Shown here: positions 1,107 to 41,610 of the stretch, one piece after another
How positions within the stretch are numbered: the first letter of the stretch is position 1
Layout of the letters: each line of letters opens with the position of its first letter
Virus record (IMG/VR): IMGVR_UViG_3300045988_126562
Reading direction: 5' to 3' (one strand)
Source: a virus
Length of the DNA: 64,000 bases
The notes under the pieces: model-generated
Databases searched by the model: none
What the model saw: the letters and a program-made list of their open reading frames with translations, nothing else
What the model was told of the DNA's origin: nothing
Translations under genes and position numbers: made by a program

Positions 1107-2053
1107 AAGTTGATTTCTTTGATTGGTTTTAGGTTAAATGAGCTGGGAGTTATTTTTACACAATCCTTAGTTAGAATAATATTCTTACTAAGAGATTCTG
1201 CTGGATACATCCAGGTTTTAATTTTATTACTCTTTTCTAGTTGATTAATAAAATGAGCACCAAAGGACACATTTTTATATTTCCAAGGATCTTTATACAG
1301 AACATCTTCTAGATACTCCCATGTTCCTTCTTGTAATCCTTCTTTACTTCTACCAGATGGCATCAGTGGTAATAACACATGATAATAAATATTTTTACCA
1401 TATTCTTCTACCACTTTTAAAAACTCATCCACTGACTTATTATCTGATATAATGTGGTGTATGTTCACTTTTACATCAGATAAAGACAATAAATTGTTTA
1501 CGGCTTTTGTAGCTCTTTCCCTTAAAACCGGGTTACTAAAGCTAACAGCTACTCCACCACAATATTTAGATGTATACTCCAATATATTTCTAGCCAAAGA
1601 AGTAGACTCATCCGATAATACAATTCCGTTAGTAGTATAATTAGGGACTACTCCGCTATCATATACTGTTTTTAGAAACTCACAAAATTGAGGATGAATA
1701 GTAGGTTCTCCAGTAGAACCAATTGCTATTTGAAAAGGTTTCTCTGTAACAATAACATTAGTACTTTCTACCTGTTTATCTTCAGGGAATGTAGCCATCC
1801 ATTTTTTCCATGTTTCACAAATGTCTTGAAAATCAGTTCCTTTATTTGTAGCACTCACATAGCAGAATGGACATTCAGCATTACACCTAGTGTTAATACC
1901 TACGTCATAAAACTCACTTCTGTCAGGTTCCAATTCACTAGCTACCCCTTTACCTAATCTTACTGTTTTAAGATTATGCCAAATAGCATGATAATTCTTG
2001 TTAGGAAATTTTCTTACTTTAATCTTACTAAATAAATCTTCGTGCTTGTTCAT
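1103..2053 (-). CDS. radical SAM domain protein
   Basis: 316 aa with a CxxxCxxC cluster (CNAECPFCY), a GSTGEPT glycine-rich motif and TNG. Confidence 0.7.
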   Translation of the reverse strand: MNKHEDLFSKIKVRKFPNKNYHAIWHNLKTVRLGKGVASELEPDRSEFYDVGINTRCNAECPFCYVSATNKGTDFQDICETWKKWMATFPEDKQVESTNVIVTEKPFQIAIGSTGEPTIHPQFCEFLKTVYDSGVVPNYTTNGIVLSDESTSLARNILEYTSKYCGGVAVSFSNPVLRERATKAVNNLLSLSDVKVNIHHIISDNKSVDEFLKVVEEYGKNIYYHVLLPLMPSGRSKEGLQEGTWEYLEDVLYKDPWKYKNVSFGAHFINQLEKSNKIKTWMYPAESLSKNIILTKDCVKITPSSFNLKPIKEINL

Positions 2054-21709: not shown

Positions 21710-22204
21710 TTATTTTCTAATAAATTCCAATAATTTCTTTAAGCTGTCAGATATTTTATTCTCTATAGAATTAATTTGAAATATTACTTCTACATCTACT
21801 AAATATTCTGACGAGTAAGAATCTCCTAAACCAGTAGTACCTTCTAAATATCTAGTTCCTTTGGGAATTATACTTTTTACTACTCTAATATTCTGTCTAA
21901 CATTAGGATGAGGATGTGCAATAACTTGGCTATTACTCAAAATCATCATAATTATACTATCGATATTAGAATAAGTGTGTATTCCATCCCTAGTCTCCAT
22001 TTTATCATTTACATGAATGCCTAAAATATTAAAAGGTTCATTAGATTGCCTCTTTTCCCCTATTCGAGGAGCTTTAACATTTCTAATGGGAGTTACCCAT
22101 CTTCCATCATATCTTTCAATATAGAGTTTATAACACTCTACGTCTTCCTCTGATACTTTGAAAGTATCTTCTGTAAAAGACTCTGCTTTAATCTTTAAAC
22201 ACAT
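21710..22204 (-). CDS. hypothetical protein
   Basis: 164-aa ORF. Confidence 0.55.
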   Translation of the reverse strand: MCLKIKAESFTEDTFKVSEEDVECYKLYIERYDGRWVTPIRNVKAPRIGEKRQSNEPFNILGIHVNDKMETRDGIHTYSNIDSIIMMILSNSQVIAHPHPNVRQNIRVVKSIIPKGTRYLEGTTGLGDSYSSEYLVDVEVIFQINSIENKISDSLKKLLEFIRK

Positions 22205-22263
22205 AGTTTTATCTAGTTAATAATTAGTGGAGGAGGTGGGAGTCGAACCCACATCTCTGGATT

Positions 22264-22734
22264 TCAATAATGTGATGCGTTCTTACCAGAAAAAGTATCG
22301 GTTTGGGAATGACAATTAGGACATAGTAATCTAAGGTTTTCTATTCTATTATCCTTATTATTTCCATTAATATGGTCTAATTGTAATGATAGAGGCTTTT
22401 CTTGCCACTCATTAATACCACATATACTACACTTGTATTCTAGTAAATTAGATTCCAATAGCCTCTTCTTTAGAGAAGTGTTATTGGTGTAAGTAGAATC
22501 TTCTACTAGAATATCTTCTAAGGACTTATACCTTTCAGGTGAGTGATTTTTAGCATATCTATTAAAGTGGGATGTATCTATATCTAGCTCTCCTATCTTA
22601 TCTTTAATTAGTTTAGTAACTCCGCCTCCCTTTGACCTATAACCAAGCTTAAAAGCTATTTCGGAAACTGTCTCAGATTCTTTAACTATATTACTAAACT
22701 CTTCATCACTAAATTTACTTATTAAAGTTCCCAT
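22264..22734 (-). CDS. HNH homing endonuclease
   Basis: Track ORF trimmed to Met22 because the upstream codons translate tRNA-Phe. CSICG...LDHINGNNKDNRIENLRLLCPNCH. Its stop codon lies inside the 3' half of the split tRNA. Confidence 0.8.
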   Translation of the reverse strand: MGTLISKFSDEEFSNIVKESETVSEIAFKLGYRSKGGGVTKLIKDKIGELDIDTSHFNRYAKNHSPERYKSLEDILVEDSTYTNNTSLKKRLLESNLLEYKCSICGINEWQEKPLSLQLDHINGNNKDNRIENLRLLCPNCHSQTDTFSGKNASHY

Positions 22735-22739
22735 ATAGG

Positions 22740-22811
22740 TGGGACAGGAGGGAATTGAACCCCCAACGCCAGGTTCTTCAAACCTGCGCTCTACCATTGA
22801 GCTACTGTCCC
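22740..22811 (-). tRNA. tRNA-Phe(GAA)
   Basis: GGGACAG/CTGTCCC acceptor, loop TTGAAGA, T loop TTCAATT. Lies inside the insertion that splits the flanking tRNA. Confidence 0.85.
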
Positions 22812-22996
22812 TTTTATCTTAAAATCCAGCGCGAACTGACCACCTGCGCTACCCCTCCATTACGAGATCCATACTAATAGCCGACTATATTAGCGGTATC
22901 TCAACCTATCTTCTACTTTGGTCGTTGATAGGATAAAACTCCTCCTCTAGTGTGCATCAATATCCAAATTTAGAGAGGCAGTAGAAGGAAATATTT

Positions 22997-23323
22997 TTAC
23001 CAGCCATGACCATGCTCTCTTCTGTAAGCTTCAATTTGAGATTGCTCTCTTTCTATGCGGCAGTCTTTTATAAAGGTATCTTCTTTATCTTTACTAACAT
23101 TTTGTTCAAAAGTATTATTTTCTGGTAAATCAAGAAGATTTAAATCTATGGGAAAATCTGTACTATCAGCTAACCAATATATGTATTGCAAATCATAAGA
23201 TTTTATCCATCTCAAAGTCCTTCCTTTGTACTTTCCAAATTGAAGAGGCGAATCCAAATACGAAGATTTTAAATTTTTCAACTTATTAATTAGTTGAATA
23301 TATTCTTCTGAAGTAACTCTCAT
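22997..23323 (-). CDS. hypothetical protein with FGKYKGRTL...YIYWL motif
   Basis: Track ORF trimmed to Met22 (ATG just after the upstream stop). Confidence 0.45.
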   Translation of the reverse strand: MRVTSEEYIQLINKLKNLKSSYLDSPLQFGKYKGRTLRWIKSYDLQYIYWLADSTDFPIDLNLLDLPENNTFEQNVSKDKEDTFIKDCRIEREQSQIEAYRREHGHGW

Positions 23324-23552: not shown

Positions 23553-23577
23553 ATCTTATATATTTTACTAAATTTTG

Positions 23578-23648
23578 TGATTCCAGTCGGACTCGAACCG
23601 ACGTATTTGGTTTTAGGGACCAACGGATAGCCACTCTCCCATGAAATC
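23578..23648 (-). tRNA. suppressor tRNA, anticodon CUA (amber)
   Basis: GATTTCA/TGGAATC acceptor, anticodon arm TTGGT-CCCTAAA-ACCAA (C at position 33), T arm GTCGG-TTCGAGT-CCGAC. Confidence 0.75.
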
Positions 23649-28156: not shown

Positions 28157-28344
28157 AATCTTCTCTTACTTGTTAATTATTAGATATTATTTTAAATTTT
28201 TTATCAAAGGATAGACTATGTTTCTTTCTCCACATACTGTATCTATCCGGACAGAATCACTTCCCAGTAGGATATGGAAAGTCTTATATGAGTTCAATTC
28301 TCAAACGAGTCAGCGCTTTAAATTAACTCGTCATAGTCTATAAG
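28157..28344 (-). ncRNA. unassigned structured RNA candidate
   Basis: 10-bp closing inverted repeat ATAGACTATG/CATAGTCTAT enclosing the hairpins ACGAGT..ACTCGT and ACTTTCC..GGGAAGT. No ORF. Confidence 0.3.
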
Positions 28345-28391
28345 TGCCTTCAGTGGGACTCGAACCCACACGGCCGAAGCCACTAGATCCT

Positions 28392-29228
28392 CAAGCTATG
28401 AGTCTTAGCTTCGACTATGTCTTAACCATATCTTTCGACTTAGGTTGCTGGTATATAGTCTGTACACATTTATAAATTGGGTTGGGCGTCAGGTGTCCCT
28501 CCGTTGTTTTCAGCCTATGTTTTCAAGGCATCCTTCTTTTAAAACATACGAACAAAAACGAATGTTCCCAATTTAACTTAGCTCGGCGTTATTTACATTT
28601 ATAAGGCTGTAACCTTCACCGAATTAGCCAGCTTCTACTTCAAGAGTTTCCTCTTGAGCACTCAATACCTTTCCTGAATAATTGTCTGTTTGTGCATGAC
28701 AATTTGGACAAAGAACTTGTAGATTTTCTAAACGATTATCTGTATGAATTCCGTTTAAATGGTGTAATTCAAGTGAAATAGGATGTCCTAACCACTCAGT
28801 TAAACCGCAGCATTCACATTTATGTTCTTTTATTCCTTCAGACAGAAGACGATTACGGATATTATGAGAAGTCCATCCTGAATTTTCAATTAAAATTTCA
28901 GAAATGTCTTTCTTTTTGATTGACGGATGTTCTCCACTTTTTAATCCTTTATTCCATCGTGCTCCTGTAAAATGACTCATATCTAAATTTAATTGTTGTA
29001 TCTTCTTTTTTACTGTATTAAGATTACCTCCTTTTGGAGATATTCCGATAATTCTACACACTTCGGCGTAAGAATGTCCTTCTTTTACAGCATTAATAAA
29101 TTGTTCTTCTGTATATTTTTTACTTGCCATGGTATATTATTTTAATACACTATTATACTAATAAAAATTGTATACACAAAAAATAATTTTAACTTAATAC
29201 TTCCAATTAATTTAGATGTAATTTTTTT
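28392..29228 (-). mobile_element. group I intron with HNH ORF in the tRNA-Leu anticodon loop
   Basis: Exon ends in U and intron ends in G. The 3' non-coding part carries R/S-like elements GTACAGACTATATACC and TAAGACATAGTCGAAG (P7 pairing GACTAT/ATAGTC). Confidence 0.7.
28624..29130 (-). CDS. intron-encoded HNH homing endonuclease
   Basis: Paralog of 22264..22734. CECCG...LHHLNGIHTDNRLENLQVLCPNCH. Confidence 0.8.
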   Translation of the reverse strand: MASKKYTEEQFINAVKEGHSYAEVCRIIGISPKGGNLNTVKKKIQQLNLDMSHFTGARWNKGLKSGEHPSIKKKDISEILIENSGWTSHNIRNRLLSEGIKEHKCECCGLTEWLGHPISLELHHLNGIHTDNRLENLQVLCPNCHAQTDNYSGKVLSAQEETLEVEAG

Positions 29229-29277
29229 AAGTCTAGCGTGTCTACCAATTCCACCATGAAGGCTTTAACTCTTGGGT

Positions 29278-34350: not shown

Positions 34351-34480
34351 AAGTTAGTTTTACCAGAATAGGACTCGAACCTATAACCTCTTGATAAAAT
34401 TCAAGGCTCTACCAATTGAGCTATACGTCTCTGGATTTAAGTTGGTAGACGTAAATTTTTTATATTGCTGTTCCTAACTT
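34351..34480 (-). ncRNA. modular RNA unit with tRNA-like domain (non-canonical order)
   Basis: Closing helix AAGTTAG/CTAACTT and boundary GAACAGCAAT. Inside: acceptor-type hairpin TACGTCT..AGACGTA, D arm TA-GCTC-AATTGGTA-GAGC, hairpin CTTGA-ATTTTA-TCAAG, T arm ATAGG-TTCGAGT-CCTAT. Confidence 0.45.
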
Positions 34481-39493: not shown

Positions 39494-39970
39494 CTATCTA
39501 TTATTAATAATGTAATTTAGAGTTCCTTTACTAGAAATATTGTATTTATACATTAACTCCTTATAAGACATTCCATTTTGCCTATCCATTTGTATTTTAA
39601 GTACAGTGTCATCAGAGTATTTTTTATTAGCATTTGAAGATTTTTCTTGTCTTACTTTTTCTGAAATATCCATCATATTATCGGAACTCGTACCAATGTC
39701 TATATTTGAAATAGAATTATTTAGTAGGTTTCCATCTAAATGCCTAACTACTATATTATCATTATATATTTTTTCTCCGAATTTGCTATATGCTTGGAAT
39801 CTATGAAAATAAACTTTTATGATTTTTCCTTCTATTCTAAATGAAAAATATTTGTATTTACTCTTACCACTAGTTCCTACTGATTTATTATGTTTATTAT
39901 AAACTATTCCATCAGGAGTTATTGTATAACCTCTTTCTTTAGCTACTATTTCAAATTTACTGTAATCCAT
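39494..39970 (-). CDS. free-standing HNH (HNH_3-type) homing endonuclease
   Basis: FHRFQAY...VVRHLDGNLLNNSISNIDIGTSSDN plus a C-terminal HTH-like tail. Ends in TAG; lies next to tRNA-fMet. Confidence 0.65.
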   Translation of the reverse strand: MDYSKFEIVAKERGYTITPDGIVYNKHNKSVGTSGKSKYKYFSFRIEGKIIKVYFHRFQAYSKFGEKIYNDNIVVRHLDGNLLNNSISNIDIGTSSDNMMDISEKVRQEKSSNANKKYSDDTVLKIQMDRQNGMSYKELMYKYNISSKGTLNYIINNR

Positions 39971-40033
39971 GTATTATTAATAGAATTAGTTGATTATCCA
40001 GCTACACCACGTGGAGGTTTCTATTATGTAGCC

Positions 40034-40105
40034 TTGCGGAGGCAGGATTCGAACCTGCGACTTTCAGCTTATGAGGCTGACGAGCTACCTCTGCTCTACT
40101 CCGCG
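40034..40105 (-). tRNA. initiator tRNA-fMet(CAU)
   Basis: C1xA72 mismatch (CGCGGAG/CTCCGCA), loop CTCATAA, and close overall resemblance to the bacterial initiator layout. Confidence 0.8.
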
Positions 40106-40333
40106 ATGTTTGGTAGCTAATTTATATCCGCTACCCAGGGATATCTCTCTTACCAGTGAGACACGGACTCTTCTAACCGTAGAGCACGGCTGGTTACTGA
40201 CGCTCCAGACACGGCATTTAGACTGAAAATGTCGAAACAGTAATTGAAAGCCTACAATGGGAGGTCATTACTCTCCCACTTTCTAGTTGTTACCCTAGAT
40301 GTGCAATTCTACACCACATTGTGTCTTTCCTAG
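40106..40333 (-). ncRNA. unassigned structured RNA candidate (228 nt)
   Basis: G+C-rich and ORF-free, filling the exact gap between two tRNAs. Hairpins GGGAGAG..CTCCC and GGTAGC..GCTACC. Confidence 0.4.
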
Positions 40334-41352: not shown

Positions 41353-41537
41353 ATTTATATTGAAATGAAAACGACAGTTCTGCAAGAGGAAGAAAAGGTA
41401 GCTTACCTATTTATGATAGGTAATATACCCGTAGGAAGCATTCTGGGATCCATTTTCTCTAAGAATTTCCCAATTTTCCTAATTACTTTCTTCATAAACT
41501 GTAAAAATTTAGTTAAACATATAATTTATCTATGTAG

Positions 41538-41610
41538 CCGAAAGCGGGGGACTCGAACCCCAAACTCCACAGTGACAGTGTGGTATTATGCCAATTTCAC
41601 TACGCCTCCG
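41538..41610 (-). tRNA. tRNA-Asp(GUC)
   Basis: CGGAGGC/GCTTTCG acceptor (two G:U pairs), arm CCACA-CTGTCAC-TGTGG, discriminator G. Confidence 0.75.

Follow-up and report, generated by a model that had tools for sequence, protein, structure and literature searches.

The DNA examined here is a 64-kb stretch (64,000 nucleotides (nt), hereafter the window) of IMG/VR virus record IMGVR_UViG_3300045988_126562, an uncultivated human gut phage of ~175 kb. In this stretch, a transfer RNA (tRNA) gene for phenylalanine, tRNA-Phe(GAA), is interrupted in its anticodon loop by a second, intact tRNA-Phe(GAA) gene (hereafter the cargo) followed by a gene for an HNH endonuclease. We consider it probable (roughly 0.8) that the insertion is a free-standing homing-endonuclease cassette, which disrupts its target tRNA gene and brings with it a replacement presumably resistant to cleavage; specificity and homing are what we infer from sequence comparisons. 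The same comparisons establish that the resident gene is disrupted, that the cargo is a like-for-like substitute, that the insertion is polymorphic in presence and absence, that the arrangement recurs in other phages and that the tRNA remnants decay.

The locus (22228..22858; coordinates are those of the whole window) is read on the minus strand, where ARAGORN finds 26 clustered tRNA genes, together with a transfer-messenger RNA (tmRNA) gene. Four sequence types of tRNA-Phe, A to D, could be distinguished among the phages studied. The parts of the locus, in the direction of reading, are the following.

22825..22858, minus strand: 5′ remnant of the resident tRNA-Phe(GAA), type A, GGAGGGGTAGCGCAGGTGGTCAGTTCGCGCTGGA, tRNA positions 1-31; 34/34 identical to the intact tRNA of sister contig L004 (9903..9978).
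22812..22824, minus strand: left junction or spacer of 13 nt, TTTTAAGATAAAA; not in empty alleles; polymorphic.
22740..22811, minus strand: cargo, an intact tRNA-Phe(GAA) of type D (Rfam 70.7 bits; also called by ARAGORN), anticodon loop UUGAAGA.
Between the cargo tRNA and the HNH ATG, minus strand: CCTAT, 5 nt, as read in the sequence.
22264..22734, minus strand: HNH endonuclease gene, 156 codons encoding 156 amino acids (aa); the ATG lies 5 nt past the cargo tRNA and the TGA abuts the 3′ remnant.
22228..22263, minus strand: 3′ remnant of the resident tRNA-Phe, two loop As followed by positions 39-76.

Altogether, 563 nt (the 13-nt spacer, the tRNA-Phe(GAA), 5 nt, the HNH gene and AA) stand in place of the 7-nt anticodon loop. 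The sequence that follows the AA after the open reading frame (ORF), TCCAGAGATGTGGGTTCGACTCCCACCTCCTCCA (22261..22228, minus strand), is also 34/34 identical to the intact allele, and ARAGORN called the joined halves a tRNA at all junctions tried. An earlier note, made from the sequence of the window, had described a tRNA split by a complete tRNA-Phe(GAA), 5 nt and a 156-codon HNH ORF. The intact sister tRNA confirms the split, and Rfam, ARAGORN and Pfam confirm the contents of the insertion. Two details need correction: the spacer had been counted as 12 nt, and the proposed anticodon stem, TGGAT/ATCCA, was one base off and partly made by the junction, the true stem being CTGGA/TCCAG. The stop codon had been placed inside the 3′ half of the anticodon loop. 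It does abut two or three surviving loop As, but the simpler view is that this stop belongs to the ORF. A related idea, that the TGA is U33-G34-A35 of the old loop, was dropped: L190, a different phage, carries a 98% identical copy of the HNH gene with TAA at the corresponding position, so that a TAA/TGA substitution in a stop native to the ORF is the simpler account. The note had missed that the broken tRNA is also a tRNA-Phe, which is why the cargo is a like-for-like replacement, and that the arrangement recurs in several lineages.

The note had proposed comparing the locus in related phages, and forms with and without the insertion were found at the same site and with identical flanks. Sister genomes (ten contigs) were retrieved through the downstream neighbour protein (21710..22204). 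Five of them, L004 and L006-L009, have no HNH gene and carry an uninterrupted 76-nt tRNA, GGAGGGGTAGCGCAGGTGGTCAGTTCGCGCTGGA-CTGAAAA-TCCAGAGATGTGGGTTCGACTCCCACCTCCTCCA, which is a tRNA-Phe(GAA) scoring 60.8 bits with Rfam; the site is filled in L002, L003, L005 and L010. The anticodon arm of the intact allele is CTGGA-CTGAAAA-TCCAG, and the interrupted allele retains only CTGGA...AAA-TCCAG; the four loop nt C32-U33-G34-A35 are lost. The right junction is identical in 13/13 filled alleles of the window lineage. At the left side, 9/13 carry A31G in the 5′ remnant together with a longer spacer, and the spacer found in most filled alleles measures 28 nt, TTTTAAAAAGGAAAAAGGAAAAAGAAGA. Two signs of mobility are seen here: filled and empty alleles are interleaved across flank haplotypes, at least three of which carry filled alleles, and the index lists the exact HNH ORF in 95 blocks, compared with 481 for the neighbouring gene, which makes it a minority, polymorphic allele. 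An exact search for the two tRNA halves in IMG/VR, in a collection that does not include the phage of the window, returned no match. With blastn against 50,697 GenBank phage records, the sole match was to the HNH gene, in its conserved 3′ part, and no close or cultured relative of the phage turned up. One sister genome, L001 (9637..10001), lacks ~2.5 kb between the tmRNA gene and a 164-aa gene with respect to L004 (7168..10001). The missing segment comprises tRNA-Lys(UUU), a suppressor tRNA with a CUA anticodon and tRNA-Phe, and the phage tRNA-Phe is therefore useful, not indispensable.

The cargo is the sole intact tRNA-Phe of the window and is not present in empty alleles. ARAGORN detected no second intact tRNA-Phe in the rest of the 64-kb window, and none was found in the remaining tRNA cluster of nine relatives, a biased sample in that it was picked via another HNH gene (39494..39970). 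Two of these nine cluster contigs (that of L186/L199 and that of L187/L197) also have the cassette. In the window and the relatives checked there is one working tRNA-Phe per genome. Resident and cargo are the same tRNA species with very different sequences, the type D anticodon arm being CAGGT-TTGAAGA-ACCTG. At position 37, type D has G (UUGAAGA), whereas types A (the resident), B and C have A (CUGAAAA), the usual bacterial state; modification of the tRNA, or its sensitivity to anticodon nucleases, could differ as a result. In L014 and L190, related HNH genes are immediately preceded by near-identical type D tRNAs. ARAGORN in intron mode misses the split tRNA, the nested tRNA taking precedence, and in the window lineage only it reports the split gene when the cargo is deleted; split tRNAs in other lineages were located with a custom half-finder that uses T-arm and acceptor complementarity.

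The closest relatives of the HNH protein (51-81% identity) are all encoded 1-17 nt downstream of an intact tRNA-Phe(GAA), and most are bracketed by two remnants of a different tRNA-Phe. The combinations of split and cargo types were as follows.

Window: split type A, cargo type D.
L011-L013: split type A, cargo type B.
L015/L016: split type A, cargo type C.
L018-L020: split type B, cargo type C.
L026: split type D, cargo type B.

The insertions, all in the anticodon-loop region, hit three target sequence types with at least five junction variants, and in a survey of 190 HNH ORFs the nested arrangement was seen for tRNA-Phe only. Scanning IMG/VR for exact patterns brought up intact type A and type B genes that stand alone; three of these are the empty forms of filled sites with identical flanks, bringing to four the lineages with paired empty and filled sites. 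The site that is empty in L240 is filled twice, with cargo B in L013 and with cargo C in L015/L016, through different junctions. L216/L217 are empty where L019/L020 are filled, the loop CTGAAAA being exactly replaced, and L223/L224 are empty where L190/L191 are filled. The empty L240 allele also ruled out CGGTT/AACTG as the anticodon stem of L011: the native stem is GCGGA/TCCGT, and 11 native nt are missing. The HNH gene of L190, 98% identical to that of the window, is frameshifted. Its right junction is the same as in the window, CATTATT[A/G]AAATCCAGAGAT, its type D tRNA starts exactly at the native gene start, and a native 3′ remnant is left downstream. This looks like the window cassette moved to another lineage by recombination within the tRNA sequence and followed by decay of the endonuclease.

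The remnants of the resident gene degenerate in relatives. The 5′ remnant is truncated in L015 and L026 and absent in L017 and L190. Point defects are found in the split halves of L005, L013 and L018, which include a 1-nt insertion in the 5′ remnant (L013) and a G1-A72 mismatch (L018). In L014 the tRNA and HNH pair has no remnants at all.

The HNH protein matches Pfam HNH and HNH_3 and PHROG 10822. In 26 homologues, C102, C105, C138, C141, H121, N133 and H142 are invariant or nearly so (≥90%), giving a CxxC...CxxC pattern plus H-N-H. The structure model (predicted local distance difference test score, pLDDT, 86) comprises a helical N-terminal domain and a C-terminal HNH domain, and sequence and fold searches of the PDB returned weak similarity, at the level of the HNH domain only. 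Thousands of relatives exist; among the matches listed in a metagenome scan, relatives had no more than 58% identity. Distant members of the family lie inside tRNA introns of ~980 nt or directly 3′ of intact tRNA genes, which fits a family with tRNA genes as natural substrates. Catalytic motif and zinc cysteines, presence and absence at the same site and a target disrupted in the carrier are among the marks of a free-standing HNH homing endonuclease, and these are found here. Site-specific cleavage of the empty allele and over-transmission in crosses would be further marks, on which the several flank haplotypes, the transfer between lineages and HNH clades that track the target type bear indirectly.

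HNH identity tracks the type of tRNA that is split and not the type of cargo, a sign that the endonuclease targets the type that it splits. The HNH proteins that split type A are 76-88% identical to one another, and that of L014, the pair lacking remnants, is 72-78% identical to them. The B-splitters (L018/L020) are 65-66% identical to the A-splitters and are joined by L017 at 80%. The D-splitter protein is ~50% identical to all others. Cargo C occurs with A- and B-splitters and cargo B with A- and D-splitters, and the near-identical HNH genes of two lineages go with identical type A anticodon arms (window and L223).

An insertion in an anticodon loop could be an ordinary or degenerate self-splicing intron whose excision restores the original tRNA-Phe, since group I introns in the tRNA genes of bacteria and phages classically lie there, and related HNH genes do occupy tRNA introns of ~980 nt. 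The window itself holds one: tRNA-Leu(UAG) (28343..29263, minus strand) carries a genuine group I intron at about 28389..29225 with an HNH ORF (28624..29130) whose product is 43% identical to the HNH protein studied here. Located between U34 and A35, it is present in the window and L002 and absent from L001 and L003-L010, and its exons (…CTAGACTT / AGGATCTAG…) join exactly into the intron-less sister allele. The earlier note had used it as a contrast, correctly: it served as positive control in a permissive Rfam scan (39.2 bits, E=3e-8), which yielded no match to Intron_gpI at E<=10 across 21900-23200. Only 18 bases of the tRNA-Phe insertion are neither coding nor tRNA. A core hidden in the ORF, the condition under which the note would have accepted an ordinary intron, did not appear in that scan either, and synonymous variation among seven HNH genes was even along the ORF, with no suppressed zone; there is therefore no sign of a conserved RNA within it. 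The insertion is also not precise, in contrast to the true tRNA-Leu intron. No splice can rebuild a GAA loop because four loop nt, including U33-G34-A35, are gone; none of the possible junctions gave a 7-nt loop with GAA at 34-36, the joins reading UUG, UAG or UAA. Together with the decay or loss of remnants in relatives, these results make a self-splicing intron extremely improbable, in agreement with the note's doubt on this point, and on sequence evidence the resident tRNA gene is destroyed beyond restoration by any splice. The same missing loop bears on two other readings that the note had offered, a genuinely split tRNA and a new excision route, in which the halves, once freed (for instance by RNase P and RNase Z acting on the tRNA between them), would be paired or ligated. 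The two halves do retain full complementarity in the acceptor stem, a stem of 6 bp can bring the ends of the insertion together, and some related phages encode near the tRNA-Phe cassette, beside an AAA protein, a 135-aa protein with a tRNA-ligase cyclic phosphodiesterase domain (PF08302; L019 3962..4369, L020 4201..4608), which with its AAA neighbour may be part of an RNA repair module. However, joining the halves produces no complete anticodon loop, the two halves are not both conserved in relatives (L015, L017, L026 and L190 have lost all or part of the 5′ half), and their complementarity is simply inherited from the intact ancestor allele. The 3′ half would moreover remain attached to 470 nt of mRNA in which no cut site is defined, processing of the cargo by RNase P and RNase Z would just sever the halves from each other, and the cassette always supplies its own intact tRNA-Phe. 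We therefore regard both routes to a functional tRNA as very improbable.

The remaining alternative, which we think unlikely, is that chance illegitimate recombination placed a tRNA and HNH pair in the gene, that the HNH enzyme is not aimed at tRNA-Phe, and that the polymorphism reflects ordinary recombination, deletion or selection on a tRNA variant, such as escape from a host nuclease directed at tRNA-Phe. Phage tRNA clusters are indeed recombination hot spots of variable content, as the deletion in L001 and an exchange of tRNA-Tyr for tRNA-Asp in L182 illustrate; differences between the tRNA types, in the anticodon arm and at position 37, could be of consequence for host defences that target tRNAs (PMC13096335); and the activity of the HNH protein is a prediction. 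Chance would nevertheless hardly account for three target types hit in the anticodon-loop region with at least five junction variants, for HNH clades that follow the split type, or for the occurrence of a single cassette, with the same right junction, in two places whose flanks are unrelated, and the family is otherwise intron-borne or tRNA-adjacent, as known homing endonucleases are. A homing-endonuclease cassette that kills a tRNA and carries a tRNA as cargo, also among the readings of the earlier note, is favoured by the empty and filled alleles, the loss of the loop, the lack of a ribozyme and the decay of the halves.

Under this preferred reading, the HNH enzyme would, during co-infection with a cassette-free phage, introduce a break or nick within or close to the anticodon-loop DNA of that phage's intact type A gene. 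Repair from the cassette-bearing genome, with the tRNA halves and the flanks as homology, would then copy in the endonuclease gene and the cargo. Carriers would be immune to cutting because their target is interrupted and the cargo differs throughout the anticodon arm. The cargo would make the insertion nearly cost-free, a role parallel to that of self-splicing where the endonuclease is encoded in an intron. Each time, the initial nested insertion would have been non-homologous, a transposition-like event at a break, and later decay of the endonuclease gene and the remnants would leave behind a swapped tRNA-Phe.

Several points weigh against this scenario. The cut site, the target specificity, the immunity of the cargo and biased inheritance are all deduced, and ordinary recombination instead of homing could produce the interleaving of haplotypes. 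The nested origin needs non-homologous insertion more than once, and no donor with the exact spacer was found. That L001 dispenses with tRNA-Phe weakens the case that the cargo must compensate for the lost gene. Finally, both L014 and Rhodococcus phage Dorin carry a tRNA and HNH pair without flanking remnants, and linkage of the two genes alone therefore does not imply disruption of a target.

Taking the lineages together, we lean, if only slightly, towards a serial replacement of tRNA-Phe alleles that involves at least four types (D, B and C over A; C over B; B over D), with each endonuclease clade specific to the type that it destroys. It would amount to an arms race in which ribozyme-free invasion proceeds by means of an isoacceptor cargo immune to cleavage.

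The nearest precedent in phages is SegB of T4, a free-standing endonuclease in a tRNA cluster that recognises tRNA-gene DNA, spreads with neighbouring tRNA genes and excludes markers of the rival phage (PMC2330249, PMC2988022, PMC13096335). Other endonucleases of intronless homing are SegF/gene 56, SegG/gene 32 and, in the tRNA region of T5, F-TflI/II/IV (PMC2988022, PMC13096335). Both SegB and the window enzyme are encoded by free-standing genes inside a phage tRNA cluster, but SegB is a GIY-YIG enzyme encoded between genes and aimed at a T-arm motif, whereas the window cassette combines an HNH gene with one tRNA inside a disrupted isoacceptor, at the anticodon loop and with both remnants kept. 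Not being a GIY-YIG enzyme encoded between tRNA genes, the window enzyme falls outside the SegB family, and by analogy the cassette would work like SegB.

The nearest parallel in logic is found in the mORFs of fungal mitochondria (Allomyces atp6; Glomus atp6, atp9, cox2 and nad3), in which an endonuclease ORF comes with a foreign copy of part of the gene that it interrupts, the native piece persisting downstream as a relic (PMC3630166). The order cargo, HNH gene, native 3′ remnant is the same, and the layout of L190 is exactly so. However, mORFs sit in protein genes of organelles, replace the 3′ end only and in frame, and encode LAGLIDADG or GIY-YIG enzymes, while here a whole RNA gene is brought in, usually nested between both remnants, in phages. 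The cassette is consequently an analogue and not a member of these gene hybrids, the class of gene, the enzyme family and the type of genome all being different. With the endonucleases of tRNA group I introns, including that of the window tRNA-Leu, it has in common the anticodon-loop site, the HNH family (43% identity) and the presence/absence polymorphism, yet it has neither a ribozyme nor a precise exon junction, and rescue comes from a spare gene instead of splicing. Transposition-like insertions of endonuclease genes have also split functional genes in two in the case of mobE in nrdA of Aeh1 and mobA in T4 gene 39/60 (PMC2988022). There too a free-standing HNH gene entered a functional gene and left two pieces, but the two protein fragments come together again and keep their function, which a tRNA broken at its anticodon loop cannot do, and the cassette brings a substitute. 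In the literature we found no description of a split tRNA gene that encloses an isoacceptor gene together with an endonuclease gene.

Several other observations were made in the window and its relatives. Direct repeats mark the cassette ends: TAATTA(A) follows the 5′ remnant and recurs at the end of the HNH ORF in L013 and L019/L020, and TTAAAA lies on both sides in long-spacer alleles and L190. They may stem from the way in which the cassettes inserted or from excision out of tandem tRNA-HNH units, or they may be coincidental, the sequence being AT-rich. In L152 (~1462..2020, AUXO011516195.1) a 45%-identical HNH ORF apparently lies directly between tRNA-like 5′ and 3′ pieces, with no cargo tRNA and no room for a ribozyme; this may be an ORF-only disruption of a tRNA gene. 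A third endonuclease gene of the window (39494..39970, minus strand; HNH_3, a different PHROG family) lies 62 nt downstream of tRNA-Met (40033..40106). Its exact protein is found in 89 blocks compared with 481 for the conserved neighbour, no flanking tRNA remnants are evident, and it is probably also a polymorphic mobile gene. Another tRNA may have degenerated at 34367..34424 (minus strand), where a partial tRNA match (Rfam 34.7 bits, model positions 7-64) shows a poor acceptor stem and an unusual anticodon loop. The tRNA with a CUA anticodon at 23577..23648 is an amber suppressor labelled 'Pyl' by ARAGORN. In-frame TAG codons occur at conserved glutamine positions of the HNH genes of L017, L018 and L020 (e.g. 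CHS*TE, SL*LDH), which points to TAG-to-Gln recoding in part of the phage group. The content of the tRNA cluster is polymorphic beyond the Phe site: L182 (8006..8088) has a class II tRNA-Tyr(GUA) where others have tRNA-Asp(GUC) (window 41537..41610), and the window is without any tRNA-Tyr.

Selfish endonuclease genes limit the harm that they cause by residing in self-splicing introns or inteins, by using intergenic sites or, rarely, by splitting protein genes whose products reassemble. The cassette would represent a further solution, suited to an RNA gene: to break the gene and bring a spare. For annotation, tRNA fragments around a tRNA and HNH pair would be read as relics, and not as split genes or introns. 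The lineages also offer natural triples of endonuclease, target and immune allele, which could yield nucleases specific for tRNA genes. As regards the phages themselves, their tRNA repertoires may turn over by replacement of whole genes, and the cassette would provide a mechanism for the diversity of tRNA-Phe within one phage group.

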